Source: a virus
Taxonomy: Duplodnaviria; Caudoviricetes
Virus record (IMG/VR): IMGVR_UViG_3300023108_000037
Span: 1-53,593 of that record
Strand: one strand, 5' to 3'
DNA: 53,593 nt
The translations under genes and the position numbers were made by a program. The notes below the pieces were generated by a model. The model was not told where the DNA came from, did no database searches, and saw only the letters and a list, made by a program, of their open reading frames with translations. This document shows, one piece after another, positions 1,664-46,554 of this stretch (the stretch's first letter is position 1; each line of letters opens with the position of its first letter).

Positions 1664-3106
1664 TCACATAAGGTTGGCAACCTTGACTCTCTGGTAGTAA
1701 CGGTTGACACCAGGATAGACACGACCCAGACCTTGGTTATCGACATTGCCTTCAGCGAAGGGGTTGGAGATAAGACCATAACGGGTCTTAAAGCCAATCT
1801 TGGGCTGGAAGGTGTTCTCACCAACGGCACGAACCATCTGCAGGGGAACGTAGGGGCAGTAGAAGAGACCAGCATCATAGGGGCTGGAACCTTTGTAACC
1901 GACAACGTAGTACTGGTTAGCAGCACTGTTAGCAGCAAATGGGTCAATGTAGACTCTGTACTTACCGTTGATAGTACCAGCAAAGGTGTTGCCAGTGTCA
2001 TCAACGTTCAGGTTTGCGTTCAGAGCAGGGGTGTAATCAAGTACACCAGCCATGGTCAGAGCGGAAGCAACATCAGCAGAAGTCAGGATGATGTTACCCT
2101 TCCCTCTACGAGTTCTTTGTGCGATGCGGTTGGCATCTCTCTCGATCTGGAACAGAAGTCCTTTGAACTTCTCAACGGACCAACGACCGTTGGAGTCAAC
2201 GTCGAGGTCAAATGTACCTGCGGTGGCAACGTTTGCCTGAGCACCGTTCTCAGCAACCTTATAGATGGTTCTGATGACTTCACGGTTGATCTCAGCAAGA
2301 ATCTCAGTGCTGAGGATGTTTGCCAGTTCGGCTTCGGCATTCAGACCGTGGATAGCACGAAGGTCTTGTGCCAGTTCCAGGGAGTATTCTGCCTTCAGAG
2401 CACGGGACTTAGCAGTAACGGTAACTTTCTCGATCGAGAAAGCCATCTGGTTGAAGTCTTCGTTGGTGCCGTCGCCCAGAGCTTCAGCATCACCAGTCTC
2501 CATGCCTTGACCGACATTGTACTGAGTACCAATGCCTGTGGTTGTACCAGTACCAGACAGAACCGAAGGATTGGTTCCACGCTGATCACCAGTTGTACCG
2601 AAACCAACCAACTCACCGTCAAGAACTTGACCAGAGTAGTTACCACCAGTTCTGCCAGAAGCAAAGTCTCTGGTGGAGGAGAATGCGGTATCGGGCTCGT
2701 CGAACAGAGCTTCGGTGCCACTCTGAGTGGAGTAGCGGGAACGCATTGCGAAGATCAGTCCAGTGGGACCGTTCATTGGTTGAACACCAGCCAGGTCATA
2801 AGCAACCAGGTTGGGCATAGAACGTCTGATCAGGGAGATCAGAACGGGGTCGAAACCAGCAACAGGACCTGCGGCAGCGGAATCAGCACCGAAACCACCA
2901 GAAGCACCAGCAGCGTTAGCAACGTTGGTGGGAGCCTCAGTCAGCATTCCACCGTTTTCGAAGGCAGACTGCTCACGCAGGAATCTCTCTTGGTTTTCGA
3001 GCAGAACGGCAGTAACAGCCTTTCTGTGGGAATCTTTAATAGGATCGCAGGACTCTGCATTAAGCAGAGGACCCCACTTCTCCATAAGTTTTTCGGAATT
3101 AAACAT
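1664..3106 (-). CDS. gp23: Major capsid protein gp23
   Basis: 480 aa; KWGPLL, AVLLENQE, GVQPM.GPTGLIFAMR, KSRALKAEYSLELAQDL, FQPKIGFKTRYG motifs. Confidence 0.99.
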   Translation of the reverse strand: MFNSEKLMEKWGPLLNAESCDPIKDSHRKAVTAVLLENQERFLREQSAFENGGMLTEAPTNVANAAGASGGFGADSAAAGPVAGFDPVLISLIRRSMPNLVAYDLAGVQPMNGPTGLIFAMRSRYSTQSGTEALFDEPDTAFSSTRDFASGRTGGNYSGQVLDGELVGFGTTGDQRGTNPSVLSGTGTTTGIGTQYNVGQGMETGDAEALGDGTNEDFNQMAFSIEKVTVTAKSRALKAEYSLELAQDLRAIHGLNAEAELANILSTEILAEINREVIRTIYKVAENGAQANVATAGTFDLDVDSNGRWSVEKFKGLLFQIERDANRIAQRTRRGKGNIILTSADVASALTMAGVLDYTPALNANLNVDDTGNTFAGTINGKYRVYIDPFAANSAANQYYVVGYKGSSPYDAGLFYCPYVPLQMVRAVGENTFQPKIGFKTRYGLISNPFAEGNVDNQGLGRVYPGVNRYYQRVKVANLM

Positions 3107-3148
3107 TGTTCTCCTTAAGGATTTAAGTTTGTGGTTTACAATTTATAA

Positions 3149-4204: not shown

Positions 4205-4243
4205 TTTTCGATTTCTCCGATTGATTGATCTAGTGATAATCTG

Positions 4244-4250: not shown

Positions 4251-4258
4251 TTATTATT

Positions 4259-4909: not shown

Positions 4910-4913
4910 TTTT

Positions 4914-17627: not shown

Positions 17628-18454
17628 TATCCGATAAGATCAAGGGGAGGAATTTCGTATTCTGAGAGCATTCTATTCTTGATGTCCAGAATTTCTCTTT
17701 CGGCATCGTCGTAGATTTCTCTACCATTAAGTTCAATACCACCAGGAAGTTTTGCTCCCTTGAACTTGATGAGGTTCTGACCCCACTGTCTCTTAATCAA
17801 AGCAGTTAGATATAACTTTACGAAAGAGTCGTTATATACGTTAGTAAAATCATCTGGATTAATAATTCTGTAGCAATCCAATACAATGTAATCACCAGAC
17901 ACAGCACTTGCCCAGTCGATGTCCATGTACAATCTATTTTGTCTCTTATTAAATCTTAATTGCTTATCAGTTGTCAGAAGGAAGTCAATATCTTCAAGAT
18001 AACTCTTTGTCATTGCATAGGAAAGAAGACCCTGATATCCAAGGTCAAATGCAATGTCATTCAAGAATAACTGATACTTGACACTGAACATTCCATTGGA
18101 AATAGAACTGGAGTCAAATTTAAATACTTTTTCGATTCCAATAATCGAATCTGGAACTTGAATATAGTTACCGTTTTCGTACCAAGTGAAATTAGTCGTT
18201 ACACCAACAGCAGTCTCGCTTGAAATACCTGTTCCACCAGGACCAGCTCTTCCACGGTCTTTGTCTTCTTCAGTAATTTGATACTTTAAGAAAGTTCTTA
18301 CAACACCATCAAAATGCCTTTCATGAAACAACTGAAGAGCGTCGTCTACGGCATCATCAATCTGTTCATCGGCAACGTTGATTTCCAGAACAGGGGCACC
18401 AAGTTTTCTAAGACAATAATCAATGAGTGATTGTCTACTATTCGGTTTTGCCAT
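17627..18454 (-). CDS. gp13: Neck protein gp13
   Basis: 275 aa; YCLRKLGAPVLEINV, KRQWGQNL.KF, LPGG..LNG motifs. Confidence 0.97.
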   Translation of the reverse strand: MAKPNSRQSLIDYCLRKLGAPVLEINVADEQIDDAVDDALQLFHERHFDGVVRTFLKYQITEEDKDRGRAGPGGTGISSETAVGVTTNFTWYENGNYIQVPDSIIGIEKVFKFDSSSISNGMFSVKYQLFLNDIAFDLGYQGLLSYAMTKSYLEDIDFLLTTDKQLRFNKRQNRLYMDIDWASAVSGDYIVLDCYRIINPDDFTNVYNDSFVKLYLTALIKRQWGQNLIKFKGAKLPGGIELNGREIYDDAEREILDIKNRMLSEYEIPPLDLIG

Positions 18455-21400
18455 CAGAAGGAGCCTCCGTCAAATACGTCTGTCCACACTGGAACACCAG
18501 ATGCGTTAGTTGTGAGAAGATAATTAGAAGTTGTAATACCACTAGTTGTCGCACCACTGCTGACGATTAATCCGTCACCATCAAAGAATGCGATTCCATT
18601 AGGACCATTGTAATCACCAGAATCATAATAAATGCCATCCGTTGCGGAAAGGAATCCGACAATGTTGACGTGAGTGCTGATGGCAACATTGCTACCAATC
18701 TCAGAGTTTAGAGTCAGAGCACCCGTCTTGCTATTTATTGTGTTATTGCTAGCAGAACCAATCTCGATGTTAGCTGCTGTTGTAATACCAGAGACTTGTA
18801 ATGTGTCAGTCTCAGTATGACCTGTTACATCAATACCATCAGCAGTGGTTTCAAATGTCTTGGTGTTGTCGTAGTAGAGTTCTACCGCTCCATCTGTAAT
18901 GAATTTAGCTTTAGTTTCGGCACCATTTATATTGCCAATAATTACTTCACTATCTCCCCAGATGTTTAGATTTCCAGGTCCAATATCTTGAATAACAGAT
19001 CCAACTGCAGGATCTGAAGAATGATAAATCTGTAAATCTATATCATCACCAAAAGTTAATTTGAAATCATCAATAATTTCAACTGAATTTTGGAATGTAG
19101 AAGCAGCAGAAACAAGAACACCGCCAGTAATCGTTACACCATGAGTAGTGGTTTCAAATTTCTTGACGTTATCAAAGTAAAGATCTACTGAACTATTCTT
19201 GTTAAATTGTCCATATACTTCATTACCACCAACATCAGTAATCCTTACATCGGAATCTCCCTGAAGGAAAAGAACACCAGTTCCTTCATCTCTAATGACT
19301 GAGTGTGATCCATTATGGAAGATTTTTAAGTCATCAGAGTTACCAAAGTTCAGAACATCGTTGTCACCGAAGTAAACATTATCTTGGAATGTGGCAATAC
19401 CAGAGAACGTGAAGTTGGTAGCAAAACCAGAACTAATGTTGATGGTATCAAACTCACCGAGAGGAGAATCGACTTGAGTGAGAGTAGCAATTCCACTGGC
19501 ATTGATGTTTTCAACTAGAGTGTCACCGACAACATCCAGTCTAGATCTTGGTGAGGCTGTTCCAATTCCAAGGTTTTGGTTGTTATCCAACCGCATTCCC
19601 TCAGTGCCATCAGTATTGAATCTGATAGTTCCGTCAGAACCAGAATCATCAAGAGCGATCGAAGTATCACCTCTTTGGAAAGCATCAATCTGAACGACCT
19701 GTGCCGTCAAGATACCAACAATATTCACATCACCGATAATATTAACCTCACCAGAACCAGCTGGGTTGATGTTTAGATCACCAGAAAGTGTCTCAATGTT
19801 GTTTCCAGAAATCGTGACGTTTCCGAACTGACCACTAGTTGGTGTGATAACACTGCTGTTAGTGCCATCAGTAATCGTCAGGGAAGAAAGTGCTTGAAGA
19901 CTTGTTACCTGGTTGGTAAAGGATACTGTTCCGTTTTCTTGGTCAACGAAGAATGCTTCACCAACTCTGAAGTCACCTTTGTGGTCAATACTGACATAGG
20001 AAACTTCACCGTTGTTCAGTTCTGTAACTTCGTTTGCTTGAATAGCAAGGTTGGGATCGTTAGAGAAATCTCCACCAGAACCGATGAAGTTGAAATTAAC
20101 TGCGAAGAATCTCAGAGTAACACCGTCACCATCAGCGACGACACCCTTCTGACCATACTCAAGAGCACAACCAACAGAACGCATGTCAGCACCAAACTGA
20201 CTAAAGTCTGCCAATGTGAATTTGGTTGCGGTTCCGATTCCACCACCAGCTTGAGTAATGCGGATATCCTGATTGACGATGATGTCATCAGACGTAGTGG
20301 TTACACCAGCAGCACCATTGAAGTGAAGGAGAACAGAGGTATCTCTATCACCCAGAAGTTCTGCTACTGGAGCAGTAAAGTTTGATGTATACTTGCTGAC
20401 ATCTTTTTCAACTCTGAACTCATCAATGTATCCCTTATAAGCACCTGTAGCACCGTCATATTCGGCACCAAGGACCATTGGCTTGGTGCTTCCATAGTCA
20501 TTGCTATCCGAGTAAGTAGAACCCTCTTGTGTGCCGTTAATGAATAGTTTTGTAGATGTAGACTCTCTGGCAAGAGCAATGTGATAATAAGTTCCAGTGC
20601 TCAATCCAGTGTTACCAAGAATGGCAGTCGTAGCACCTACTTGTACACCGATACTAGCACCAACGGAAACGATGTTAAGAGCAGTATCAGATGCTGACCC
20701 ATTTCTTAAGTCAAAGATTGTTTTCTTACCAGTGATTTCATCTGGTCTAATGAAGAACTCAACGGTGAAGTCATTCGCTCCGAAACCGAATCCACCAGCA
20801 GTCTCAGCACTAATAGAATCATTTGTACCGTCAAGATACAGAGATGCTGTCCCAAACTTAGGGAAATTGGTGGAAAGTTGTGCATCACCATTGAAGGTAA
20901 CTGCCTGAGCAGTTCTATTTGGAAGAACTTCAAATCCCTCGCTCTTACCAGAAATTCTGAAATAAGTGGCATCGGCACTAGCAACAATACCAGTTGCCAG
21001 ACCAGTTACACCGTCAGTATCAAAATAGGTAACGGTGTTGCCGACTCCAACGTCTGTCGTAAGACCAGTTGCTCTCAGTCTTGTCTTACCATCAGAAGCG
21101 AGTCCAACAGTGCCAGACGTACCTTCAATACCAGTTGCAGCAAAGTAAGAGAAGCAGTTTAGGAACTCAACACGAGCTCCGTTTGTCATTTCAATACCCT
21201 TACTGTTTGGTACAATAAAAGTACACTCATTGAATAGGAAACCTGCCTCCAGAGAATCACTGGTTACTTCAGAACCATCAATATAAGCACCACCACCAGC
21301 AATGTAAGAGGATGGTGGGGAATCTGCTGAACTATAACCATATGGATCATCAGCAGTGGTGTTACTACCAAAGTTCAGAACGGTTACTCTCTGAACATAT

Positions 21401-23493: not shown

Positions 23494-23717
23494 TAGTAAA
23501 CACCTCCATCAACATTTAATTCAGAAGCGGTAGAAGCGTTAACCCACCTTCCAATCGAACTTTGATACACCAAAATTTGACCGTCTTGTTTATTTGTAAT
23601 ACTTGTGTCGGTTAGAGATTCTAAGGAACCACCTCCACCTCCACCACTGCCAGTAGCACCCGTGGTTAAAACCTTAACCGCTGGTTGCTGACCAACACGA
23701 ACTTTTACCCTTGTCAT
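23493..23717 (-). CDS. Small fibre-associated protein, 74 aa
   Basis: Gly linker, DGQILVY....RW.N motif, C-terminal DGGVY; TAATG-coupled on both sides. Confidence 0.75.
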   Translation of the reverse strand: MTRVKVRVGQQPAVKVLTTGATGSGGGGGGSLESLTDTSITNKQDGQILVYQSSIGRWVNASTASELNVDGGVY

Positions 23718-24055: not shown

Positions 24056-24079
24056 TTAACGAAAAGCACCCTATAGAGG

Positions 24080-24086
24080 TATTTAT
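24080..24086 (-). promoter_or_regulatory. Late promoter
   Basis: ATAAATA upstream of the 112-aa gene. Confidence 0.7.
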
Positions 24087-24298
24087 CTACCTAATAAGTC
24101 ATGAACTAATCTTTTCAATTCATTTACTTCTTCGTGAAGATCAGAGAGTTCTTTTTCCATGTCTCTCTTTTCTTCTTTTTGTTTTTTTAATGTATTTCTT
24201 TGACGGACATATTCTACATATGCCCGTCTATCTGTGTTGACTATCGCTCCAGTATTTGGGTCACGATAGAGATTTTGATGTCCCTCTACCTTTATCAT
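24083..24298 (-). CDS. Small coiled-coil protein, 71 aa
   Basis: KVEGH.NLYRD..TGAIVN followed by a coiled coil; coupled to the VrlC-like gene. Confidence 0.8.
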   Translation of the reverse strand: MIKVEGHQNLYRDPNTGAIVNTDRRAYVEYVRQRNTLKKQKEEKRDMEKELSDLHEEVNELKRLVHDLLGR

Positions 24299-27200: not shown

Positions 27201-30200
27201 GAGTAGCAAAAGCACCAGACTTATGATCTGGTCTTGCAAGTCTAAATCTGATGATGTCAACACCATCTACAGATCCAACAACTGTTTCACCAACTTGGAA
27301 TACACCTGTTACACCTTCAACTTCAACCAGTTTGGGAACAACATCAACACCACCGTTTCCATCAAGGAATTGGTAGTATCTTCCATATGGTTTGTTTCCT
27401 ACAGAATCAAACGCTACGTTTCTAGACCTCATGAATTGATCAGGTCTATTAGATACAACTCTTACTCCACCAGAACTGCTTCCTGCTCTGCCTGGGTTTG
27501 GAATCCAAGAAATTCTTGCAGCCCGCCAGAGATTTCTAACCCAGAAGTCAGACTTTGGTGTAAGATCAACACTTCCATTGTATAGAACAACATTAAATGG
27601 GTTTACGTTCTCAACCTTAGTGGCATGTGGTTGACTCAGATACTCAACTTCATCATAGTTGAGTGTAATCATTCGACCAGTCTTAGTGACATTTGGATCT
27701 AAGAGATCAAAATCAACACCTAGATCGATCTCATTATCTGGAATATTAACACTAGATGAAACAAGAGCATCTAATGAAATTGCATCCAAGAATGGTTTTA
27801 ACTCATTATCTTGTGGAAGCATTACCGATCTGGGATCGATAAAGTTGGCATTTCTAAAATTATCAACAAAGAAACCAGACTTGAATCTATTAAGTCCAGT
27901 GGCATCTTGAACCTGAAGTGATTGGGTCTCCAATTCCAAAAGATTCAAAGAGGTTATTTCTTCAAGACTTTCAATTCTATCCTCAAGTTTCCCGATATCA
28001 CGCATGGTGTATCTTCTATTATCTTCCATCGTGATGGAAACATTATCAAGATTATAAAGATAGGCAGGAAGTTCAAGAGTCGCTAGAAGCATTGCTTCAC
28101 TGATCTTATCAGGTGCCTTTGGATTTCTATCGGGAACACCCTCTACATATACGAATTTACCAAGTGTATCAACGTACAGTCTATCAATTCTAGGAGCGTA
28201 GAACTTATACCCAATTACAGAACTTTCATTCGCAGAAAGAATAATTTTGGGTTGATCTGTGAATACTCTTGATTTGAAATCAAATGGTGATGCTGATGCA
28301 CTGCTGGGATCAAAGATAGCAACTCTAGGTCTAAAATCTAAAGTATCCGAAGCTCTTTGCTGCTGATTTCCAATGAGTGGGACATCTTCAGAGAATCTCT
28401 CTGCATCGTAACTATCTACGGTGAAGATATCACCCTCATCGTTGGAAGGCACAGTGTAATGATCAAATACAACGAAAAGCCTTCTAGTTGGTTCGGAGTA
28501 ACCATCATTTCTTACCAATCTAGCATAATCATAATATTGACTCTTTTGACCTTTATCTAGGGAAAATCTATTGGTAACATCAGTGTATCTTCCAGATACG
28601 ATTGATTGAATTTTTCCAATTACATTTGATTCTCTAAACAATACATTTTCTTGAGTAGTAAATTTACTCTCAGTGAGATAGACAAATGTAATTTGATTGG
28701 CACCTTTTGTCACTACTTTTGCAATGGCACCTGAACTTGATCCAATCAAGTTTTCACCAAGAATCACGCTATCATTGATGTCGGGATTTGTGAAGAAGTT
28801 GAGAGTATCTAAGGTTACTCCAGTTTCATCAATTGCTTGAAAAACAGCAAATATATTTGCTACATCTGGATAGTTTAGGCAGATTTCTTTATCCTGCACT
28901 CTCAGTCCATAAAAAGTGCTCTTTTCGAGACCGTCATTGATGCTGCTGTTTGCATCAGTTCCAGAATTACTATATTTGGATCTGGTTACCTCAAGAGTTC
29001 TTACTCTATTGTAAACTTTCTGTTTATTTTGAACTGCAGTTTTTCTGACTGTAGCAATAACATTTACGTTAGATTGACTTGCTCTAAGACCATTGATAGT
29101 AACAACATTCGAAGAGATTGATACTTGATCGTCACGAAGTGGTTCAACATCACCATCACTATAAATGACAGAATATCTTTCCTCATCAAATGCTTCAAAA
29201 AGAATATCTGTGAGACCAGTGATATCTGTAGCAGAGAGTGTAAGAACACCTGCTGCATTGGTAGTTTTTCCAGTTGCCTCAACAGTTGCTTTCAGAGTAG
29301 AACCAGTAAAATCAACTGTAGCAATGTTTCCATCATCTAACTGTGCATACAGGAATCCTTCTTCTTCATTTCTGATGGAGGATCTTCCTCTTCTAAACTG
29401 TACTGTTGTGGTAGAAGTTGGAAGGGCACCATCATTAACGTTATTAACAGTGTGTACCGCTTGCAGGTTCATAATCAAACCATCAGCAGTAATAGAACTT
29501 ACTCTATTAAATGTTGCTGTAGAGAATCCAGGTCTTTGATATCTAATGATGTCACCAACCTTAAAATTGGTAAAGTCATTTCCAGCAGAAGTTGTGACAC
29601 CAGCGTTATTGATTGTGATTGTATCAGCAACAGTGAATCCATTAGGGACGGTAAAGTCTAAAACTGTGTCTGCGGTAAAATCAGTGGTATATCCAGCTAA
29701 AGCACTGCTATCTTGGAAAACCATCCTGATATCACCAGAGCCATAAGACTTGACGTTATTTACGGTTCTGGGTGTTGTAGAGATACCGTTGATACTAATA
29801 GATTCTCCTTGAATAAAACTGCCAGCAGTTTGCCTCAGGAAGACGTTAGAACTGCCTGATCCTACAGTTGTGGCATATCCAGTTGCACCACTACTCAGAC
29901 CTCTAATGAATGAGGTATCTGGAAGTTCACCAGCACTGAGAGTGTTATTTAATTGAATTCTAGTATATGTTTGAACATCATATAGATAGCAATCGTAAAT
30001 TGTTGTCTCTGTTCTAGCAATACTTACTTGAGATTCTGGTTTTACTGTATATACTCTTGCTTCACCAATCTGAGTTCCATTGCTACCACCACCATTATCT
30101 CTTCTCTCATCATAGAGTTGAACAGCGTCCTTAAATTTAGGAATTCCAGTAACGTTGTTCAATTTAAGAAGGTTACCCATCTCAAAGTCAACGGCAGAAG

Positions 30201-31359
30201 ATTGGACTTCTTTAGTTGCTCTAGTTTTGTTTACATCAAGAATTGTAGTTCCATTCTTTTCTACATCATATCCTCTGACATACGCAACACCTGGTCCTAC
30301 TTTTAAACAGGCAAGATCGTCATTAGGAATGCTTCCCTGAGATGTAGCTTGGTTAGAGAAGTAAAGTCCGTCATTGCCAAGTCTATCATTCAAAGAATTA
30401 AAAAGACCAATCTCAAAATCTTCTACAGAGTAATCTCCAGATTCATCATAAGTTCTCTTAGCGAGATAGTCACGAATCTGACTGTATTGAGTGCTCTTAA
30501 TAATTTTTCTGATTTGACCGTTCTCAACCCTGAGAAGTTCAATGAAGTTTACATCGACTGTATCGGTGATGCTCTTCTTACCAAGAACGAGTTCAATCTT
30601 TAATCTATCAGCACCTGGTGCAGTATAGTTAGAGAACCCTTTAGCATTATCATACAGAGTTCCATCTTCTTTTGCTGTAGCGATGGTTTCTGCAATAATC
30701 AAACCAACCCTAAGAGATGGTTGATTTGTATATTGATCAAGAAGAATGGTCTGCTTTGTTACTCTGACAAAAGTTCCTCTAAGGAACATGATGCCTTCAC
30801 CAATGTGAGCGGCAGAACCAATGGATGTTGCATTTTCAGAGATACAGGTAGCAAATGTATTACCTGCAGGAATAGTTGTATTACCGTAGTCTACTGCCTC
30901 TAAAGTCTCTAAATTTTCTCCATCAGTAAAAGAGGCTTTTGCATCATTTGAGTTACCAGAGTCAATATATTTAACGTATAGAGTTACATTATTTCTTTCA
31001 GAAAGTGTCTCTGCAAGAACATATTGAACTTGGGCAGTGACATTAGATTCCTGACCAACAATTCTTTTACCGACGAAATTATCAATGTAAACACTTACGT
31101 CTGTACCTAAGTGTGTTGCATTGATTTCTACAGCATAAAATTGGTCATCATATGTTACGTTTCCAGGGATGACAATAGATCCCTCTTTAAAAATATGACT
31201 GCCGAACTGTTCAATCTGATTCTGAAGAATCGATTGTAGAGTTGTCAGTTCTCTTGCCTGAATTGGGAATCCAGGTTTGAACAGCACACGATGATAATCC
31301 TTAGCAGGATCAAAATCATCATAGTAAGGATTGACATTGAGATTTGTCTGCTGTGGCAT
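24295..31359 (-). CDS. VrlC-like (DUF4815-type) large baseplate/tail structural protein
   Basis: 2354 aa; NLNVNPYYDDF, VLFKPG.P.QARELT.LQS.LQNQ, RTYDESGDY, RFKSGFFVDNF, DPLAQSF motifs. Confidence 0.92.
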   Translation of the reverse strand: MPQQTNLNVNPYYDDFDPAKDYHRVLFKPGFPIQARELTTLQSILQNQIEQFGSHIFKEGSIVIPGNVTYDDQFYAVEINATHLGTDVSVYIDNFVGKRIVGQESNVTAQVQYVLAETLSERNNVTLYVKYIDSGNSNDAKASFTDGENLETLEAVDYGNTTIPAGNTFATCISENATSIGSAAHIGEGIMFLRGTFVRVTKQTILLDQYTNQPSLRVGLIIAETIATAKEDGTLYDNAKGFSNYTAPGADRLKIELVLGKKSITDTVDVNFIELLRVENGQIRKIIKSTQYSQIRDYLAKRTYDESGDYSVEDFEIGLFNSLNDRLGNDGLYFSNQATSQGSIPNDDLACLKVGPGVAYVRGYDVEKNGTTILDVNKTRATKEVQSSAVDFEMGNLLKLNNVTGIPKFKDAVQLYDERRDNGGGSNGTQIGEARVYTVKPESQVSIARTETTIYDCYLYDVQTYTRIQLNNTLSAGELPDTSFIRGLSSGATGYATTVGSGSSNVFLRQTAGSFIQGESISINGISTTPRTVNNVKSYGSGDIRMVFQDSSALAGYTTDFTADTVLDFTVPNGFTVADTITINNAGVTTSAGNDFTNFKVGDIIRYQRPGFSTATFNRVSSITADGLIMNLQAVHTVNNVNDGALPTSTTTVQFRRGRSSIRNEEEGFLYAQLDDGNIATVDFTGSTLKATVEATGKTTNAAGVLTLSATDITGLTDILFEAFDEERYSVIYSDGDVEPLRDDQVSISSNVVTINGLRASQSNVNVIATVRKTAVQNKQKVYNRVRTLEVTRSKYSNSGTDANSSINDGLEKSTFYGLRVQDKEICLNYPDVANIFAVFQAIDETGVTLDTLNFFTNPDINDSVILGENLIGSSSGAIAKVVTKGANQITFVYLTESKFTTQENVLFRESNVIGKIQSIVSGRYTDVTNRFSLDKGQKSQYYDYARLVRNDGYSEPTRRLFVVFDHYTVPSNDEGDIFTVDSYDAERFSEDVPLIGNQQQRASDTLDFRPRVAIFDPSSASASPFDFKSRVFTDQPKIILSANESSVIGYKFYAPRIDRLYVDTLGKFVYVEGVPDRNPKAPDKISEAMLLATLELPAYLYNLDNVSITMEDNRRYTMRDIGKLEDRIESLEEITSLNLLELETQSLQVQDATGLNRFKSGFFVDNFRNANFIDPRSVMLPQDNELKPFLDAISLDALVSSSVNIPDNEIDLGVDFDLLDPNVTKTGRMITLNYDEVEYLSQPHATKVENVNPFNVVLYNGSVDLTPKSDFWVRNLWRAARISWIPNPGRAGSSSGGVRVVSNRPDQFMRSRNVAFDSVGNKPYGRYYQFLDGNGGVDVVPKLVEVEGVTGVFQVGETVVGSVDGVDIIRFRLARPDHKSGAFATPTVAYTINPYDNTTTLPTQYSLASTVLNVDIVALAAQAQGAFSGRLEVGARLRGLSSGAQADVSDIKLIADNGGDLQGTFFLRNPLTNPPPAVRITTGTKEYKLTTSATNAEPLPGSKLISTAVTNYTANGRVIVRQRVQTIFYDPLAQSFLVEDEGAFITSVDVFFANKDGGNIPCEVQLRTMELGTPTTTLVSPAARVLVKPGDITTSSDASVATNIKFPSPIYLEPNREFAVVLLADTDQYEVWVAEMGQKTVNASDLPAATGVVYATQYSMGSLFLSQNGSIWTANQYEDMTFKLYRANFTTNAGTAFFYNPKLDTSNAGTRILSEDPIETYPRKLTVGIETYANGQAGITTLAIGRKVTTSAKGYTFGFVEQQGGPLSPTNGVGVFTGGSGYGTPDATVDTFNINSNGTGLQLNVTVGMGISNVTAVSVASSGTGYVVGDTVGLVTSQMGGFGDGAVINIDNLWGIDTLYLTNVQGEDMQVGAALSYYDGSGNIKGASSTTLLSVDVTSSSLTTGDVNDGSWFHVDHYNHGMYADNNKVTLSKIEPNTAINVLSAPLGVDDAVISLGNTSGLLTYEGIAVGAANTGYLVLNEEIIAYDSIGVGTVGVLQRGVDNTLTIAHQTNDQARKYELNGVGLRRINKTHDMGSVDRTIDGYYIQIDRSNRDTDDNTNQEPQLSFTTNALVGGRIAEATQNIQFNYIAPQFDVVTPGEGTSVSARVRTVSGTSINGTEVSFLDQGFESVGINTINELETPRLIASKVNEDARTTDLPRSKSLTFGVELQTTDSYVSPYINLDQASLQLLSSRIDNPGMNYATDPRVNSDDADPHSAIYVSQRIDLQQPASSLKVLLTAVRPSEADFRVLYKLVRADSSEIDQTYELFPGYENLIDTDGDGFGDQVQNIAANTGHPDAIVPPSLTPNDYLEYQFTADNLEQFTGYVIKIVCTTTNQSKVPMFRDIRTLALA

Positions 31360-31363
31360 TTTA

Positions 31364-32947
31364 TTAGAACTCTAATACGATTTTAACATCTTCCTTCTGT
31401 CTCTCATTCCTGGTAACAGAAGGTCTATTGTCAAGGTAGATGACTTCACCTTTCCTTTTATTTATTTCTGGACTTGCAAGACCATCTGTGAAGTTTACAC
31501 CAAGATTGACAACCTTTCCGTTGTTAAGTGTGGTTGTAATTCCACTGAAGTTTTGGTCCACATTCACACTAAAAGAACCACCGCTCTTTGTAATTGCGTT
31601 AGAACTTGAGGTAAACTCAAGTACGGGTGCTCTAGATCTTACATCGGTTGCATCAGTTTCATCACCAGTAGAAGCATTGTAATACAGACTTCTGTCTTGA
31701 TAATATCTAATAATTTTGGTTTCAGTGTCGTAAGAAGCAACGATTCCTTTAGCCGTAGATCCTACACCAACAGTCTGCTCAATAGTATCACCAATTGCCA
31801 AATCTTGAGCAGCACTCTGAGTCTCATATTTAATAGAGAACAATGCAGAGAATTGATTATCAGTAAAGATTGTATTGGAATTTAAAATGGTTGGATTCTT
31901 TACAATACCCACTTGTGCAAAGATTGTATCATCGGAAAAATCATAAGATGAATTATCAAATCTTGCATACATCAGAACTTTGTCCGCACCAAGTTCTTTG
32001 TAAACATTGAATCCATGTCCTCTAGATGGAGGAATAATTGCTGTTAATTTAGCAAATGCAGATGTCGCTGTTTGAACACCAGCATTTTCACTAGAAAGAT
32101 CAACTCTTCCAAAAGAATATCCACTACCACCCGAAGTTACTTGAGTCTCAATAATTTGACCAAGAGAATTTGTGGTTAGTCTTACTCTACCACCTTCACC
32201 ATCACCAAGAATTGGAAATTCTTTAGCAGTAAACTGAGGATATCCAAGACCTGGTTCGTCAATAGCAACAATTTTTATTTGGTTATTATTGACTTCAGAA
32301 TCAGCATTATCTCTGACAGCCTGAATTCCAGTATTAGTTGTAGTCAACCAATCATTGGGAACAGTAATATACTCAGTAGAGTCAAACTTAACAATGTCAC
32401 TGGGGTTAATAGTGTAGAGATATTTCCACAAATATCCATCACCACTAGTTCCTGCTCTACTAGGTTCAACATCAGTAAATGTTGGCTCGTCCAAAGAAGC
32501 AGATGGTGTAGTGGAAATGCCAGTGGCAGTTCCATTATCTAAGCAAATATAAACACGGAACTCACTATTTACAACATAATAGTTGGAATCATATAATCTG
32601 TTCGAGTTTGTTACCTGAGCTGCATTACTGCCACTGTAATCATGCCTATAATAGTCATAGGTAGAACCCTGAACCCAATTCACCTTTCTAATTAACCTTC
32701 TTGTGTTAGAAGAAGTGACACGCTTGCCAAAAAGCATGGTGTCATACACATGATTGGAATAGTTTATATTATCGGTGGGAAATGGTGGTCCACCAAGATC
32801 ATTCCAAGTCGATGTTCTACCATATCCAGATCCAGTAGGATTGGATAAACTCATAAAAGCATAATAAGAGTTAGCTGTATTTGCGACAGATGCCACAAAG
32901 TTCTCAGCATTCAAAATCCTAAATTGATCTGTAATAATCGCAGACAT
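31364..32947 (-). CDS. gp8: Baseplate wedge subunit gp8
   Basis: 527 aa; AIITDQFRI.NA, YVVNSEFRVYICL.N, DGYLWKYLY, Y.DNR....R...QKED.KI..EF motifs. Confidence 0.95.
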   Translation of the reverse strand: MSAIITDQFRILNAENFVASVANTANSYYAFMSLSNPTGSGYGRTSTWNDLGGPPFPTDNINYSNHVYDTMLFGKRVTSSNTRRLIRKVNWVQGSTYDYYRHDYSGSNAAQVTNSNRLYDSNYYVVNSEFRVYICLDNGTATGISTTPSASLDEPTFTDVEPSRAGTSGDGYLWKYLYTINPSDIVKFDSTEYITVPNDWLTTTNTGIQAVRDNADSEVNNNQIKIVAIDEPGLGYPQFTAKEFPILGDGEGGRVRLTTNSLGQIIETQVTSGGSGYSFGRVDLSSENAGVQTATSAFAKLTAIIPPSRGHGFNVYKELGADKVLMYARFDNSSYDFSDDTIFAQVGIVKNPTILNSNTIFTDNQFSALFSIKYETQSAAQDLAIGDTIEQTVGVGSTAKGIVASYDTETKIIRYYQDRSLYYNASTGDETDATDVRSRAPVLEFTSSSNAITKSGGSFSVNVDQNFSGITTTLNNGKVVNLGVNFTDGLASPEINKRKGEVIYLDNRPSVTRNERQKEDVKIVLEF

Positions 32948-32968
32948 TATTAGCCTTTGTTTTTTCTG

Positions 32969-32976
32969 TATTTATA
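32969..32976 (-). promoter_or_regulatory. Late promoter TATAAATA for gp8
   Basis: Perfect T4 late consensus 22 nt upstream of the ATG. Confidence 0.8.
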
Positions 32977-32985
32977 AGTTGAATT

Positions 32986-35900
32986 TTACTTTCGACTCAG
33001 AGCACCAGTCGATCTTAGTCCAGCGTCTCTTCTTTGGATAGTTGGATAAGTTGTCATTCCAACCTCAAAGCTGTTTCCATCAACAGCAATTTCAATAGGA
33101 TCATCCGATCTAGTTATGTTGGAAATTCTACCCCAAACAATTTTACCTGCTGGTTCTAGATAAGTACCAGTGGTTGCAACACCAACCGTATTGGTGTCTG
33201 GATCAACCTGACAGGTAAGAATTCCAACTGTTCCAGAGAACTGAGTATAATATGCTTCATAGATGTTATCCAACTTATCGGTAGAAATTCCGATAATGTT
33301 AGTTGTACCGATTCCAACTGAAGTTGCAGATCCAACAAGTGTTGTAAGACCAGTTCCAACACCAGTGTCAAATACCAGAACTCTATATCCCTGAACTAAT
33401 TGCTGTCTCTCGGCAAGAGTTGGAACATCACGGAGGTCCAATTCAAAGGTGAGTCCAAGACCAGCTGGTGGAATACTAAAGTGGTATTGTGATCCAACTC
33501 CAGAAAGGTTGAGAACGTAGGCTCTCTCACCATCTGGTTTGGCAGTCATGGAAACTGTTGCTCCTGCACCAACACTCAATGTGGACGTGGTGGCAACCCC
33601 TACTGTGGTTACATCATAAGGTGTGGACAAATCATATTCAATAATTTTCTCAGAATCACCACCAAGAACAATCATCTTATCGCCAGCAACACTCATGACA
33701 AAATCAGTTGTTGCAGCATCGTCATCTGTCAATGCTTGACTACTAGCAAAAGAAACACTAGTGATGTCAAAAGCACTAGCCATGTCATACTTATAAAGTG
33801 CTGAAGAATTAGGAGAAATCGTAATAATTGCAGATCCAGTATCAACAACCTGCAGACCTCTGTGGTTTTGGGTTTGGTTAGCAATGGTGGTTGAAGTTTC
33901 AACACCAGCTTGTGTATCACTAGTCAAGTCCCAAGCTGAGGAAAGACTAAACTCATTAAACTGTGTGACAAATGGTGCTTGAGCACCACGACCCAGAGTA
34001 AAGAGTTTTGTTCCATCATCACGGAAATAGAGGTCATAAATGTTTTGGACTTGAGTGCTGATTCCAAGTTGGTTGCTGTTATTTACAGTTGCCGTATCAA
34101 TCTCAAAAGGAGTGGCAAGTTGCCATTCTGTAATTGTCAAAGTATTTTGATCAGCGACATACATTCTAGTTCCATCAGGTTTCAGGAAGATTGCCTGAAG
34201 ATCATTCTTAGAACCATCAACAAGACTTATACCTTTTCTGTAGATGAGTTTTTCAGCATCAAATGGATAGAACTCCTCCAATCTTGCATATGCGGTAGTA
34301 ATACCAGTTACGACACCAGCATATCCAGTGACATTAGTGTCAAGAATACCAGAGACCCTTTCTGTATCAACTGTAGTTGTAGATCCAATTCCAGAAGTAG
34401 GAATTCCTGCAACGAGTAGTCCACCAAAATTACTATCTGGATCACCAGATGGATCAACACCTAGGAACAGGGAAGTATCCTCAACAAAGAAAGTAGTGGT
34501 ATCTCTCTCAACACTCTTAAGGAGTTTTGCTGTTGGGTAAATTTGTGCCTCAATTGAATCTCTCGCTTTAGATACAAATTCTCCACCTAGAACTTTATCG
34601 ACCTTTTGCTTAGTCCAAGCAAGAAGTTTTGGTTCTGTGGTGCTTACACCGTCACCACGATACAGTGAAGTTTCTATTTCACTTGCAGAAGTAATACCAA
34701 CAATCGCACGATTGGTCTCTTGAGATAGATTGTCGAAGGTGCGTGAAATTTCATTCAATTCAATGCGTGGAGATCTTCTCAGTTGAACATCATCACCAGG
34801 TTTGACTGTTTCAGTAGTTGCCTGAAGGAAACTATCTACACCTACCTTTCCTCTATAGAAGAAGATAGAAACGTTATCTTCTGGTGCTGGAGGTTCAACA
34901 AAAGTAATTGAAGTGCCACCTTCAAAATCATATGCCTCACCTGGTTCTTGAATGATACCGTTGATAAAGACAAGGAGCAGAGAATTAAGATCGATAAGAG
35001 CAGAATCTGCGTCTTGCTTGTCAACCTCAAAACTAATCAGTTGATCATTATACGCAAGTGGGAATCTAGATCTAGTTCCATCTTGGAATGGTTTTACGCT
35101 ATCGATATAATCCAATTCACCAAACTGCCATGATGAGAAAGCATCTTCAAAGGTATCAACGACTTCAATTTCAAATTCTTGGAAGTCATCTCCAGCAAGT
35201 GGATCGGTTGTCATACCAACAACTCTAACCCTATCACCTCTTCTGAATGAATATCCAGGTTTGGTAATTTCAAACTTCTGAACCTCAAACAGAGTTGCTC
35301 CAATTCCAGTTCTTACTACACCACCAGCACCAATATAATTGTATTTTACTTGAGTTGTGGCAGCACCGATATTAATGGTGAAGTTGCCATCATCAATTAC
35401 TGATAGAACAATATAGTTACTAGTAGAATATCCAGGGAAGAAGTCACCAGCATCTCCAACTGGAGCGTATGGTTCAAACTCCACATTACTTACTTTAATA
35501 ACATCACCTGTGGTGAATCCATGTCCAGCAACGCTGACTGTGGAAAGACCAAGAATTTCATCATAAACAAAGTTAGTGATTGGTTTTGAATTGTAGACTG
35601 TGTTAATACCCAGAACACCAATAGTAACTGACATTCCAATACCAGTGATGGTTGTTGCTCCTGTAGCAAGTCTGGAAACACCCTCAATCACCAGGTTATC
35701 GTAACTTGGTTCTTGGATATTGATAGTTGGATTGGTGTATCCACTACCAGCAGCAACAATGTTGAACGCCAAAGTGCCACCAGCACCTACAGTAGCAGTG
35801 ATCTCTGCAGGAGTTCCAGTATGTCCAGATTCAGTAACTGCGATGGCTGGTGCAGTGACTGTAGAGTATCCACTACCAAAGTCAGCAATTGTCCATTTAG

Positions 35901-38900
35901 CAAATGTACCACCAGACTGATATGTGTGAGCAAATGTCACAACACCTACTTGAGTTTCAAACTTATTGCTGGACAAAATACGATTCGCATAGTATGGACC
36001 ATATGGTTTTACTTCGTATGCGTCACCAGCAGTCGCTCCAGCTCCAGCATAAACGTGGGTGATAGTCGAAACACCAACGTCAATGACAAAAGTATTAGTT
36101 CCACCAATACCAAGAATGGGATATCTATTGGTGTTGACACCGACTGCTTTTCTTCCCGAACTTCCGTCTGGGAAGATGGAGTTAGTAATTCCCGTATGGG
36201 GAGTAGAGCAAGCCATTCCAATATTGGCAAGATCAACTAATCTACCAACTCTAAAGTTGTGAGCAGATGTCAGTCCAACTGTTGCAATACCAGTTAAATT
36301 GTCATAATCAAAAGAACTAATCTTAAAGTTTACACCGATTTCACTTGGGAATTGATAGACGTTAGTAAATGGACCATCAGCAGGACATGCAAATGTCAAG
36401 GACTTTAATTCAATCTTATCACCAGTATTAAGTTCGTGATCAGATGAAGTTGTTACTGTCAGAATACCAGTTGCATTATCATATTCAGCATCTGAAATTG
36501 CCGAAAATACTCCAGTTGTTGGTACACCAGCGATATTAGTAATTTGACCAAGAGTGACTGTTGGTTCAGCAACTGCCTTTCTAAGAGGTGCATACCCAAG
36601 TCCATTTGTAGATCCAAACGAAATGGGAACACCACCTCTTGGTAATTGATTCAAATTAATATCAGAAGGATCAACAATTTGATCACCACCTACAGATGTG
36701 ATTCCAGTGAAAATTACGCTACTGATACCACTGACTTCAGTAATTGCAAAATTATTTTCTGTATTATTTGGAGTAGATGGTGCTTGGAATACCCCATTAA
36801 TGAATACTAAACCATTACCACCAGTACTACCAATTCCAGTTACGTTGTTTCCATCTGAAGTCAACGTAAAGTCAGCAGTTACACCATCAAACTTATCGGA
36901 AATATCATCAAAGATGAGGTTAGTTCCATAATCTTTTCTGAGATAAACTCTACCATTAAAATTAGATCTTGGAATGGTTAATCCTCTACTGTCAAGATCC
37001 TCTCTACCAGCCCCCATTGGTGCTTCTGTGAAGTGGATCTTACTATCGACGATATCAAATGCACCTCTGAATACAGAGACCGCACCAAATTGACTGTGAG
37101 CAGTTACAGAAGATCCAACAAATCCACGTTCTACTTGAACGATTGGTAATGTTCCAATGGCACCGACACCTGCAGCAATTGTTGTTCCCAATCCAACGAC
37201 GGAAACTTTCATCAGTTCATTATCTACTTTAAGCAAGTCAGCGGGTCTGATTGAAGAAATACCACTTAATTGAATGATCGTTGTTCCAGCACCAACGTCA
37301 TGCATAATTTGCTCTGAAAGTGGAGTCTTAGACAGAGGGGATTGAACAATACCATCCAATGTTATGAGTGCCTTCTCTGCTCTCTTCTGCATGGCAAAGA
37401 CATGCTTGTTTCCAGCACCAAGTGCTGCAAATGTAACAGCAGTTCCAGAGAGTGCGTTAGCACTGCTGATGGCAACTCTAAACTGAGCCTGGTTGTCTCT
37501 GATAGCATAAACAGTGTCTGGTAATCTTTCGGTTGCACCAACACCAGTATAGTAAACCATACCTGTGCCAGCGACACCAATCAAATTAGAACCAGCAACG
37601 TAATCAAGAGGTTCTGCAGTTGAGAAGAAATGGTCTAAAGTAAAGATTCCAGTTGTAGTGCTAACAACACCAGCTTGTGTTGGGTTGAATGTTTTTGCAA
37701 AAATGTCAACACCATTAAACTTAGCATCAAATTCTAAAATTTCTCTTTGGTTAATACCATAGTAAACAGATTGAGATACGTTCTGATTTACGTTACCGTA
37801 TATCAAATCACCAATACCAGTAGCATCACCATTGTTGTCAAGATCTCTATTCAAGATCTCACTGAAAGATTGTACCAGAATATCTCCAGAGTAATCTGGA
37901 TGGAATTTCAGATCAACACCATCATTAGAATAATCAGCAGAGAATGTACCAATTCCATTATTATCATTGACAGAAAGGAATGGATAACTCAAAACATAGA
38001 GGTTCTTTCTATCCTTCTCATCGTTGAGAATATAAACCTGATGAATAGCTTGAGTGTCACCAATACTAACTCTAACAGTGGCTTTCATTCCACCATCAGT
38101 GATGCTGTTGATTCCCGTGATTACTGTTGGAGTTCCACCAGTAACTTCAGCAAAATCAGATTCGAATCTACCTGTTCTCTCTGTGCCATCTTCTGTTCCA
38201 GTAAACTTAAATCTATAAGTTCCAATTCCAGCAGCGGTTGTGCCGATACCAATTGTTTGAGTTCTTACTCTTACTTCATTAGATCCATTATTGTTGTAGA
38301 TCAAACTTACAACACCAGAATCAATAGAAGATGTAAATGATCCAATAAATGGACCAGAAAGACCATTCAAACCGACTCTGTTATTGAAAGCTGCCAGTTC
38401 TGACAGATAAGTATCGGTGCCATCATGTGTGAGAATGAGTTCTGTGTAATCTACATCCTGCTCAAATTCATCAAAGATCTCAACACTTGTGTAGAAGGTA
38501 TCTGTAACAGAAGTGCTAAATCCAAGAACTGTAGTGCCAACACCAGCACTTACATTTTGAGTCTTGGCGATAACATCAACAAATCCAATACTCTGAGATC
38601 CAAGTCCAGAGATATCATTATCAAAGAATGTTTGAAGAAGTTTTACTTCGTAATCGGTATTGAACTTCTCAACAGGAGTAAATCTCAAAGAATACTGGTT
38701 GGTATCCTCGTCAAAGAATCCATCCAGTTCACCAATAGAATCACCAAGACCAACCTTTTCAAATAAGAAAGTATCTTCATTATTGTTGATGAGGACAATT
38801 TCCTTAAGACTCATTTCAGCATCATTTGTGACATCAACAATTTGTGTTAAGAATTTGTTAGTTTTTCTTCCATCACCAAAAATAGCAACATCCTTGAACT

Positions 38901-41900
38901 CCAAAAGTTCATCCGCATCTTCGTTCAAGAATTGCGAACTGATGTCATCAATAGTAACTACTCTGTTTGATTTGTTTAGAATAAAATCAGTGATTGGAAC
39001 ATTCAGAAGTTCAATGGATTTTGATGTGTTTTCGGTTGCATCAACATCAAGAGCGAAATCAAAATCATTGATCGTATCTACTCTCTTAGCACCGTCATAG
39101 ATGTCTAATACAAGGAATGGATCTTCCTGTGCCGTGGTAAACGACAGACCTACATTGCCTTTAGGACTGATTTGAGTGTCAGCAAAATTACGATATCCAG
39201 CTGGATGAACATTATCATTTACGAAACTAATAATATCATTGAATGCCTTTTCACTCTGAATAGAATAAGACATTCTCTGATAATAGTCATTGTCACCAGT
39301 TACCTGATAGTCTTCACTTAGTTTTCCAATGTCATCGCTCCACCCCTTAATAAACTTAGATGTAGAATCAATTTCAAATCTACCAACCTTAGTAGAGATA
39401 TTTGAAATTGTGCATTTAGCACCACTAACAGCACCAGTCAAAGTATCACCACTCTGAATAGGTGTCGTTCCATTTATGTTGAGTTTTCCAGTCAGTGCGT
39501 TAAAACTACTTACGGTGAGGTTAGTAGATCCAATAACTTCTACACCATTTAAGAATAAAATTTCACCTGGTTCAAATAGTGAATTCTTCTTGATTACTTT
39601 GAATTCTGGAAGATCATCTTCCTTAACAACGTTGGAGAACAGTCCTGGGTTTGTCACTGCAATTCCAGTGTTTGTAGTAACAAAGCTACTCAAATCATAT
39701 GAAAGTTGATTTGGGTTTACACTGGCATTATAAGAAGAAACGGTGAAGTATTGATATCCATAATCGGAAGAATTATGTCCCTGACCATCAGTAGAAGCAA
39801 GACCAATACCTTCAACAAAAATCTTATCACCAGATCTGAATGGTGCTGTCGTAAATCCCAAAATAGGTGTGGAAATACTAAGAGTTACCTGATTATCTGT
39901 ACTGGAAGCGACACTAACAATAGAAATTCCATTATCGTTACCAACAGTAGCAGCACCATAAACAACATCGTCTTTAAGACCAACTGGATTTCTATCAATT
40001 CTTACACCAGCGGTTTCTTCACCATCAACAAGAGTCGTTGGACTTACTGCACTTCCAGATAATTCTGTCGAACCTTGGAAATCTGTAACCACATCTCCAG
40101 TAGATGAATCATAGAGAACCAATCCTGGTGGTGTCAGATAATTTTTACCACCACTCTCAACAATAATGGTATCAATGGTTTGGAAGTTAGTTACAGACAG
40201 TTCATTTGGAACATTAGCAGTTGGTGTTAATGTTTTATCTGAAGGATAAGAGAATCCAGGTGTGAGAAGTCTTACATCTTCAAGTTTTCCAATTGTTGAA
40301 GAATTAAGTCTCAATATAGAATCTACGCCCTCTGCAGAAGTAATACTGGAAATACTTGGTACAGTTTCATATTTAAGTCCACCAAAGACAAGTTTTACAT
40401 TGGCAATAGATCCAGTAGCCGTTGTAGATGTCGTGGTGTATTCAAGAGAATCAGACTCAGAAAGATTATAAGTTATTTTTTCAGGAACCTGAGTAAGGTT
40501 GACATTAAATGTGGTACTGGTAACACCCGTGACTTTGTAAGTCCCACTAAACTTACTATTAGAATATTTTAATTGATTATATGCGTTGACATCTTTATCA
40601 GATGTACTAATAAATCCACCTTTATCAAAATTATAATAAAGAATTGATGGGAAGTTTGTAGAGAATCCAATAGTGGCACCAGCACCAGCTGTACCATTGG
40701 TGCCAAATGTAGAAACTAAGAAGTTAGTAGTCTTTCCTGTCGATACCACAGGATTTTGATATTCATCATCATAGTAAACTTGCAAATTATATCCAGACAA
40801 AGTTGGATCTTCAAGATTAAATACGACATCATTATTTCTGAAAATCTCAATGGGTGGATTGACAAGAGACAGTGTTTGTGATGTTCCACCAACTGATGTA
40901 AGACTTACAAAAGTTGGAGGTGAAGAAATAGCGTCCAGTCTAGTCTCAGTTAGTCTGAAATTATCCTTATCAATGGCAAAGACATAGTAGCTACCAGTTG
41001 ATAGTCCACCAATTACTTCACTGGATTCATAGTATACTTTAACACCAGTAGTGTAATCGTGATCGGACAATGTAATAATATTTGTACTTGTGTTAACTCC
41101 AGCAGAACTAATAGCAACTGGATTTACAAGAATTTTTTCCTCAGCAATTTTGAAAACAACAGTTGAGGCAGCACCAACACCAGTGCTCAATCCAGATTTC
41201 ACTGACAGTTTAATAATATCATTATCAGCAAGACCATGAGTTTCACCAGTTGAGACTGTCGCTGTTATTTTCTTAACATCTGCAGTTATTTGCTCAAATC
41301 TAGATGCAAACTGGTAATCATACAGATTTGTGTAAGATACATCTCTAAAGAAAACTTGGTCTCCGTTCAAAACGGTTGCCAGACCAATCGTGTCTTTAGA
41401 GTTCTTGACGGCATAAACCAAGTCTGGCAAATAGAAGACAGTTCCTGTTGGGCTTGTTGATACACCAATTGATGTGGTTCCCAAACCAACAGAGAAAGTA
41501 ATTGGTTGGTTAGTTTGGAATGGATGGTTTTCTAAGAAGATATTCTGAGTTGGAATAGTTCTTGTTTCAATTCTATTATTAAATCTATAGGATCTAGATG
41601 TTGTAAATCCTGCGGTTATTCCAATACCAACAGCTTCAAATGGATTAAAGTTAACAGTATCTTGTTCTTTAGATTCGAAATATGGTGTCTCTACCGAAAT
41701 ATGAAATCGTTGTGGTGGGTATGTAACTGTCTCACCAGCGGTATGTCCTACACCACCACTTGCGGTTTCAGATGGAAATCTTTGAACTCGGATAATACCG
41801 TCACCAGAAAAAACATTCAGAATACCAAAAGTTTCATTTGAAAGTTTAACAGAACTTCCAACGGAAATAGGAACATTCGTAACAGTAATATCGGTTGTCA

Positions 41901-46554: not shown

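Follow-up and report, generated by a model that had tools for sequence, protein, structure and literature searches.

Why does one four-residue motif recur across the external virion proteins of a marine T4-like cyanophage? The DNA in question is IMG/VR virus record IMGVR_UViG_3300023108_000037, positions 1 to 53,593 (the window, meaning the whole 53,593-nucleotide stretch that was analysed), and the motif is G-[IVLFM]-[GSTA]-[ST]. A sequence-only reading of this DNA proposed that the motif arose repeatedly in unrelated folds as the target of a shared modifying enzyme, giving an O-linked glycan coat on capsid, sheath, neck, baseplate and fibres. The motif excess is a real protein-level signal. 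The motif itself is probably a short structural turn signature that needs a hydroxyl, and the hydroxyl at its fourth position would help the protein to fold or stay stable, for instance through hydrogen bonds from side chain to backbone, and would not be there for modification.

The window contains the structural module of a T4-like cyanomyovirus, as identified by family matches and by the synteny gp23-gp22-gp21-gp20-gp19-gp18-gp17 ... gp8-gp7-gp6-gp25. Its large open reading frames (ORFs) all lie on the minus strand. The closest named phage is S-SKS1, with about 78% nucleotide identity across conserved genes and the same gene order.

Extent of the motif excess

The motif was scored in 29 curated window ORFs. 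It occurs at 103 sites against 23.1 +/- 4.7 expected from 2000 composition-preserving per-protein shuffles, none of which reached 103; the enrichment that the sequence-only reading proposed to check against shuffled controls therefore persists. Shuffling inside 40-residue blocks gave the same outcome, and global and local composition were ruled out as its cause. As a guard against post-hoc choice, all four-position motifs over 11 residue classes with an expectation of at least 3 were scored. G-[IVLFM]-[GSTA]-[ST] ranks first of 6909 class motifs (z = 16.5), the next being a superset at 12.2, and the runners-up are supersets and subsets of the top motif. Unbiased 3-mer counts are led by AGV, TGI, GIG, GVG and SGI.

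Codon usage at motif sites equals the background, 96 of the 103 12-mers that encode motif sites are distinct, and the motif is frame-specific, with 84 occurrences in the main coding frame versus 3–15 in each of the five others. Selection therefore acts on protein and not on DNA, and a DNA-level motif or codon artefact is ruled out. Recent duplication was also rejected as a cause, with a BLAST self-comparison returning only two weak inter-protein matches.

The excess is concentrated in two ORFs, gp7 and the fibre, which together hold 73 sites versus 13.0 expected. Ten other external proteins add 28 versus 7.6 (P about 1e-8). The 17 remaining ORFs (terminase, portal, scaffold, protease, tube, gp15, gp16, gp6, gp25, UvsY and enzymes) hold 2 versus 2.8. 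The excess is thus confined to external tail, baseplate and fibre proteins, as had been proposed, but the apparent absence of the motif from internal proteins is only what composition predicts. The gp21 motif sites are conserved in S-SKS1.

Taken singly, three minus-strand genes show a clear excess. These are the giant gp7-like baseplate protein of 4522 aa (32986..46554; 53 sites versus 8.5 expected, among them VGLGTTSIGVSTS, IGIGTTAAGIGTY and VGIGTTNIIGISTD), a 1679-aa fibre or baseplate-wedge-like protein with a Laminin_G_3 domain (18454..23493; 20 versus 4.4), and the gp18 tail sheath (7746..9935; 7 versus 1.2). Four others, also on the minus strand, have a nominal excess: the gp8 baseplate wedge protein (31364..32947; 4 versus 0.7), the gp13-like head-tail adaptor (17627..18454; 2 versus 0.14), a 424-aa virion structural protein (phrog_1645; 11903..13177; 3 versus 0.5) and a 2354-aa DUF4815 or VrlC-like structural protein (24295..31359; 7 versus 2.9). 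No significant excess is found singly in the gp23 major capsid protein (1664..3106, minus strand; 2 versus 0.6, P = 0.12), in a 90-aa protein with one site, or in the gp14-like neck protein (16212..17627, minus strand), which also has one site.

All the motif examples quoted in the sequence-only reading are present (seven in gp18, four in gp8, three in the 424-aa protein, one in the 90-aa protein, two in the gp13-like protein, 20 in the fibre and 53 in gp7). The capsid part of the suggested coat is not indicated, since gp23 is not significant. The neck part holds nominally for the gp13-like protein and fails for the gp14-like protein. In gp18, all seven sites fall at residues 99–415, a variable outer region; the T4 gp18 core aligns to window gp18 residues 1–94 and 414–728 only.

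Several further genes complete the module. The window also encodes gp22, gp21, gp20, gp19, gp17, gp15, gp6 and gp25, and a fibre-assembly-like protein lies at 23717-24055. A 508-aa open frame antisense to gp23 (1592-3118, plus strand) is most likely not a gene. The giant gp7 has a YHYH domain at residues 1257–1353 (PF14240, E = 1.4e-23) and a weak Baseplate_wedge match. In S-SKS1 the gp7 equivalent is split into four ORFs (592, 1062, 1571 and 707 aa; stretch 30897-43283) that jointly align to the 4522-aa protein of the window, and two of the four have no annotation in the record.

Conservation, repeats and structural setting

All four motif positions are sharply defined. Gly is enriched 4.4x at position 1, where the next residue reaches 1.6x; position 2 favours Ile (6.4x), Val (4.4x) and Leu (3.9x); Ser, Gly, Thr and Ala are each enriched 3.4–5.2x at position 3; and position 4 favours Thr (6.1x) over Ser (2.4x). 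The flanks are nearly uninformative except for V/S/T/A at -1 and Thr at +4 (27 of 102 sites).

The motif is conserved by position in gp7 orthologues of about 40% identity. In 15–18 of 18 sequences the motif class is retained at sites 114, 129, 927, 1003, 1517, 2867, 3098 and 3121, with substitutions that stay inside the class (GITT/GVTT/GLTT, GFTT/GFGT/GFGS), and the other sites are lineage-specific. Where the glycine and the hydrophobic residue are kept, 325 of 359 alignment cells have Thr or Ser at position 4, and just 17 have Val, Leu or Ile. A small residue (G/S/T/A) fills position 3 in 305 of these cells, the others having V, Q, K, E or H, which suggests an exposed residue. Homologues of gp7 residues 2620–3320 below 36% identity still carry 311 sites versus 51.0 expected, a 6.1x excess.

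Part of the count is inherited. Comparison of 1035 pairs of segments with hhalign, using a 23-sequence gp7 alignment, revealed repeat families inside gp7, named A, B, D and E. Six copies of family A lie between residues 606 and 3068, five of them with the motif at the equivalent place (isGLSTg..yYv); families D and E also have common motif positions, and family B is common to gp7 and the gp14-like protein. Merging equivalent repeat sites removes only about 7 of the 53 gp7 sites, and modules do not account for most or all of them. The premise that the motif arose repeatedly in unrelated folds is therefore only partly true: it does occur in the non-homologous gp18, where a comparison of the gp18 profile with that of gp7 2620–3320 found no relation, but some gp7 sites occupy equivalent places of ancient repeats. 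Two local resemblances between proteins were seen at 31–35% identity (E about 5e-4). One joins gp13-like residues 68–125 to gp18 residues 412–469, and the other joins gp7 1128–1186 to gp14-like 258–319, a module that carries N-G-G-x-x-Y.

Among 120 gp18 homologues, 93 have two sites, and four to seven are found only in the closest clusters (at least 72% identity); S-SKS1 gp18 has 0. At the window gp18 motif columns, relatives have GAGT, GTAT, GIVT or DITA. In gp8 and VrlC-like relatives the glycine is kept and the rest of the motif differs. Summed over six orthologue pairs, the site counts are 23 for the window and 9 for S-SKS1.

The structural setting was examined in an AF2 model of gp7 residues 2620–3320, built from 60 sequences (pLDDT 81.2) and all-beta. 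Of its 11 motif sites, five start strands just after the glycine, three end strands, three lie in loops and none is mid-strand. Placement at strand boundaries (9 of 11, versus a background of 0.70–0.74) is no different from that of glycine-containing segments generally. Foldseek gave local matches of the 701-residue model to T4 gp9 and to the N-terminal region of an Acinetobacter phage tailspike, with probability 1.00 each; its global matches were meaningless. A sequence search of solved structures with the fibre and gp7 gave nothing usable, and 38 close homologues yielded a poor AF2 model of gp18 (pLDDT 41.5).

Lineage distribution and a candidate glycosyltransferase

The motif excess is restricted to one clade of T4-like cyanophages. 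Eleven of these, the window included, have 2–5x the expected count, whereas nine other phages have 0.3–1.2x. ORFs of the related loci were called with a simple greedy caller, and a few may be mis-called, as in the window, where the antisense 508-aa frame was chosen over gp23. Both strands were used, with a minimum of 80 or 100 aa, for S-SKS1, ACG-2014f, S-CAM4, S-RIM2, phiN3, T4, V05 and STML-13-1, and plus-strand frames of at least 400 aa for the others. On this basis the motif-rich relatives are S-SKS1 (40 observed versus 18.0 expected, 2.2x), ACG-2014f (35 versus 12.1, 2.9x), S-T4 (59 versus 12.4, 4.8x), S-SRM01 (46 versus 11.8, 3.9x), S-CAM7 (20 versus 9.6, 2.1x), P-SSM2 (48 versus 11.6, 4.1x), Sf-CH5 (73 versus 15.5, 4.7x), S-CAM9 (57 versus 13.1, 4.4x), P-TIM68 (68 versus 21.2, 3.2x) and B23 (55 versus 12.0, 4.6x). 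The motif-poor phages are S-CAM4 (11 versus 10.9, 1.0x), S-RIM2 (5 versus 15.1, 0.33x), phiN3 (7 versus 12.5, 0.56x), T4 (8 versus 11.3, 0.71x), Vibrio V05 (8 versus 8.7, 0.92x), STML-13-1 (7 versus 12.2, 0.57x), S-RIM32 (10 versus 8.3, 1.2x), S-SZBM1 (10 versus 9.6, 1.05x) and ACG-2014d (5 versus 14.3, 0.35x).

Eighty IMG/VR loci with gp6 at 60–86% identity hold 1372 sites versus 326.6 in ORFs near gp6, mostly N-terminal gp7. S-SKS1 has 105 versus 44.8 in its structural-region ORFs and 21 versus 17.0 in all others. The densest case is a tail fibre protein of phage B23 (878 aa, locus stretch 41669-44302), with 15 sites versus 0.67 expected. The S-SKS1 tRNA cluster (stretch 2996-4077) includes tRNAs for Gly, Thr, Ser (two), Ile and Ala; the motif is made up of these residues, which also dominate the late structural proteins.

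It had been suggested that other T4-like lineages might swap in a different motif in step with their glycosyltransferases, and no swapped Ser/Thr motif was found in the motif-poor ones. The top motif of the S-RIM2 locus is G-G-small-G, which has no Ser/Thr requirement (27 versus 4.1, z = 11.3, all locus ORFs), and the others have z of at most 6.8. Module make-up alone can therefore produce such signatures. The giant baseplate protein of S-RIM2 (6378 aa, locus stretch 22038-41174) is depleted in the window motif (3 versus 10.9). The giant proteins of S-RIM2 and S-CAM4 have only short stretches in common with window gp7, and the YHYH stretch is one of the few common to both.

A single candidate for the modifying enzyme is encoded in the window, next to the baseplate genes. 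It is a GT-A-like glycosyltransferase candidate of 254 aa (50162..50926, minus strand), which lies beyond the span 1664-46554 covered by the sequence-only reading. It is 81% identical to an Sf-CH5 protein named glycosyltransferase in its record, and its Atlas look-alike clusters are also named glycosyltransferase. The window protein itself matched no Pfam or NCBIfam family above threshold, and the single sequence matched no solved structure. The family profile matches a solved GT-A enzyme, A197 of STIV (2c0n_A, E = 5.9e-8), in two stretches that include the DxD region. Across 68 sequences residue D112 never varies, at least 90% keep S113 and D114, and E223-D224 is likewise conserved; the DxD metal and nucleotide-sugar motif of GT-A enzymes is thus present. 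PF00535 (GT2-type) is matched by 14 of 68 relatives at E <= 0.01 (best 3.6e-6), and the family comprises 2095 representative clusters at E <= 0.001. A survey of general glycosyltransferase families over five genomes, since superseded by this gene, gave matches to GT2, GT1, GT25 and GT10 in S-SKS1 and/or ACG-2014f alone.

All 11 motif-rich T4-like cyanophages have an enzyme homologue (56–81% identity), and not one of the nine motif-poor phages does. The gene lies 1–3.5 kb upstream of gp6 in all 34 IMG/VR loci with enough upstream DNA, and it was found in 105 phage records, versus 497 records with a close gp6. The enzyme is 75–81% identical across cyanophages whose gp6 is 48–62% identical. The S-SKS1 homologue is in two frames, the break falling within an N-terminal extension absent from most of the family, and the P-TIM68 and B23 enzymes have about 45 extra residues inserted after residue 128.

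By gp6 all 11 carriers belong to a single clade, so the co-occurrence of enzyme and motif may be a single event. The gp7 type was compared for four of the ten relatives (S-SKS1, ACG-2014f, P-TIM68 and B23) and is common to all four. Outside the clade a homologue is also carried by an uncultured 735-kb phage, but the only independent enzyme carrier tested is S-TIM5, an unrelated myovirus that is not T4-like and whose homologue shows 56% identity. In S-TIM5 the 30 virion proteins annotated between 1 and 148 kb hold 37 sites versus 33.3 expected (P = 0.28), and its fibre proteins hold 9 versus 3.5, 7 versus 3.8 and, in the third, 1 versus 2.6. Co-variation of enzyme and motif across independent lineages is therefore not seen.

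The regulatory context of the enzyme gene was also inspected. It is preceded by a sigma-70-like promoter match (50949..50977, minus strand; TTGACA, 17 nt, TAGAAT; 11/12), a consensus match only, and such matches are not above shuffles in the region. The sequence ATAAATA, which resembles the T4-type late promoter box, has all 16 of its copies on the coding (minus) strand (e.g., 1245, 4244, 5407, 7087, 24080, 32969 and 48889), many of them shortly before late structural genes, with a total not above shuffles (16 versus 11.8). As a consensus match only, this box stands before gp22, gp20, gp8 and gp25 and not before the enzyme gene. Directly upstream of the enzyme gene is a 2OG-Fe(II) oxygenase (PF13759, TIGR02466-like; 50974-51669, minus strand). 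According to annotation tables, several 2OG-Fe(II) oxygenases flank the baseplate genes in S-CAM4, Sf-CH5, S-CAM9 and P-SSM2.

Competing readings and significance

A structural turn signature is favoured by the deep conservation of site positions, the placing of sites at strand edges, inheritance through repeats, the precedent of S-RIM2 and the outcome in S-TIM5. In such a signature the glycine would end or begin a turn, to be followed by a buried aliphatic residue, then a small or exposed residue, and then Thr or Ser with a required hydroxyl at position 4. In this clade gp7, the fibres and surface insertions are built of beta-sandwich and fibre modules, whose strand edges and hairpins the motif would mark. 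It may have spread by ancient duplication of these modules, after which purifying selection would have retained it. In the sub-lineage of the window, further surface loops of the sheath, gp8 and neck may have drifted or been selected into the same local solution.

Several observations weigh against this structural explanation. The weak flanks and the failure of BLAST to see repeats mean that most sites are not explained by recognisable duplication, and only about 7 of 53 gp7 sites collapse as repeat equivalents. Relatives have GAGT, GTAT, GKSS or GNNP at homologous gp18, gp8 and VrlC columns; the same backbone therefore tolerates other residues, yet the window lineage moved several sites alike, a same-direction shift visible in the six orthologue pairs (23 versus 9). 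Exchange of the position-4 Thr for V/L/I, which is common at buried strand positions, is rare here (17 of 359). Other T4-like phages under-use the motif (0.3–0.9x), and it is therefore not a generic feature of beta-proteins.

The alternative that fares best is that the motif is an O-glycosylation acceptor and that the 254-aa GT-A-like enzyme adds a sugar to its Thr or Ser in gp7, fibres and other external proteins. Transfer in the cytoplasm, before or during assembly, would then give a glycan coat on tail and baseplate. This reading is unlikely. It would account for four sharply defined positions (G 4.4x, I 6.4x, S/G about 5x, T 6.1x) between weak flanks, for the hydroxyl kept in 325 of 359 cells, and for sites at strand edges and loops of outward domains, as in the gp7 model and the gp18 outer region. 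The enzyme's distribution (11 of 11 versus 0 of 9), its synteny with gp6 (34 of 34) and its conservation far above that of gp6 also fit, and the reading is kept alive by the same-direction changes at homologous loops of the window lineage and by the rare Thr-to-Val exchange.

Against this stand the single clade of carriers, with a shared gp7 type in the relatives compared, and the lack of a significant excess in S-TIM5 despite its enzyme homologue. Only about 20 close clusters show the sheath excess, and no site is present in S-SKS1 gp18, though the enzyme is clade-wide. The enzyme gene follows a sigma-70-type promoter match and not the ATAAATA box of late genes, the window enzyme falls below every Pfam and NCBIfam threshold, and it might just as well act on sugars of the host envelope or on DNA. 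We know of no bacterial or phage O-glycosylation sequon that resembles the motif. It is accordingly improbable that the clade including P-SSM2, S-T4, ACG-2014f and the window phage coats its baseplate, fibres and some sheaths with O-linked sugars at a G-aliphatic-small-Thr sequon by means of a GT-A enzyme. Among the papers listed by literature searches there was no report of cyanophage virion glycosylation and no cryo-EM structure of a T4-like cyanophage baseplate.

A recognition site of another kind is quite improbable. The motif could be read by an enzyme for some other Thr/Ser modification (phosphorylation or acylation), be gripped at exposed hairpins by a phage or host chaperone or assembly factor, or form a contact between adjacent subunits. 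The same short-linear-motif features (sharp positions, weak flanks and a kept hydroxyl) and the restriction to external, assembly-dependent proteins would suit such a role, as would the 2OG-Fe(II) oxygenase gene adjoining the enzyme and the encoded fibre-assembly-like protein. However, no candidate partner co-varies with the motif, and 2OG-Fe(II) oxygenases are abundant also in the motif-poor S-CAM4 and S-RIM32 (annotation tables).

It is hardly credible that the excess is an artefact, whether of composition, of low complexity, of a repeat at the DNA level or of recent tandem duplication. Gly, Ser, Thr, Ile and Val are abundant in the window proteins, small-residue runs are mildly enriched (ssss 1.5x) and neighbouring sites at most 11 residues apart slightly exceed random placement (16 versus 10.1 +/- 2.9), but the observed count is never reached by global or local shuffles, codons are at background, 12-mers are mostly distinct, the signal is frame-specific, BLAST finds no internal repeats, and T4-like phages of similar composition reach only 0.3–1.2x.

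The structural reading has parallels in other tail proteins. The beta-helix of T4 gp5 is built on an eight-residue VxGxxxxx repeat, and this, the G-G-small-G of S-RIM2 and the window motif are all short glycine-anchored motifs that recur in giant beta-rich tail proteins. As with such tail-module signatures, the window motif is partly inherited by module duplication and lies at turns and strand edges. Unlike them, it recurs without a fixed period, its flanks are little conserved, its position 4 must bear a hydroxyl, and it occurs also in non-homologous proteins such as the sheath and gp8.

If the sequon reading were true, the nearest mechanistic analogue would be the AIDA-I and TibA autotransporters, in which AAH and TibC O-heptosylate Ser/Thr in the cytoplasm at a short structural beta-helix repeat motif. 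Unlike the window candidate, AAH and TibC are GT-B-like heptosyltransferases, act on another repeat and are bacterial, not phage, enzymes. In mycobacteriophage, mass spectrometry reportedly placed glycans on capsid and tail-tube subunits, in C-terminal stretches rich in Ser and Thr (work attributed to Freeman et al., Cell Host Microbe, 2023). There too the glycosyltransferase is phage-encoded and the targets are external virion proteins, as proposed for the candidate here; the sites proposed in the window differ in being a four-residue motif scattered in folded domains. The 254-aa protein resembles STIV A197 as a small viral enzyme without extra domains, and the two are only distantly related. 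A review (PMC10551542) gives A197 a GT-A fold and describes the STIV capsid protein B345 as glycosylated, only "possibly" by A197. The profile match thus points to an enzyme of a virus with a glycosylated capsid protein, but STIV is an archaeal virus, and its N- or O-linkage is not tied to the window motif.

Both motif and enzyme are present in several cultured phages (among them S-T4, Sf-CH5, P-SSM2 and S-CAM9), with dozens of predicted sites per particle. Were the motif a sequon, it would give otherwise unexplained cyanophage glycosyltransferases a substrate and would extend virion glycosylation beyond actinobacteriophages, to phages of Gram-negative hosts with a defined sequon; it would also matter for host recognition, for grazing and for the stickiness of particles in the sea. 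A structural motif, which is the probable case, would be a compact marker of one giant baseplate and fibre module family in abundant ocean phages, and would aid annotation and the finding of domain boundaries in huge, otherwise unannotated proteins.

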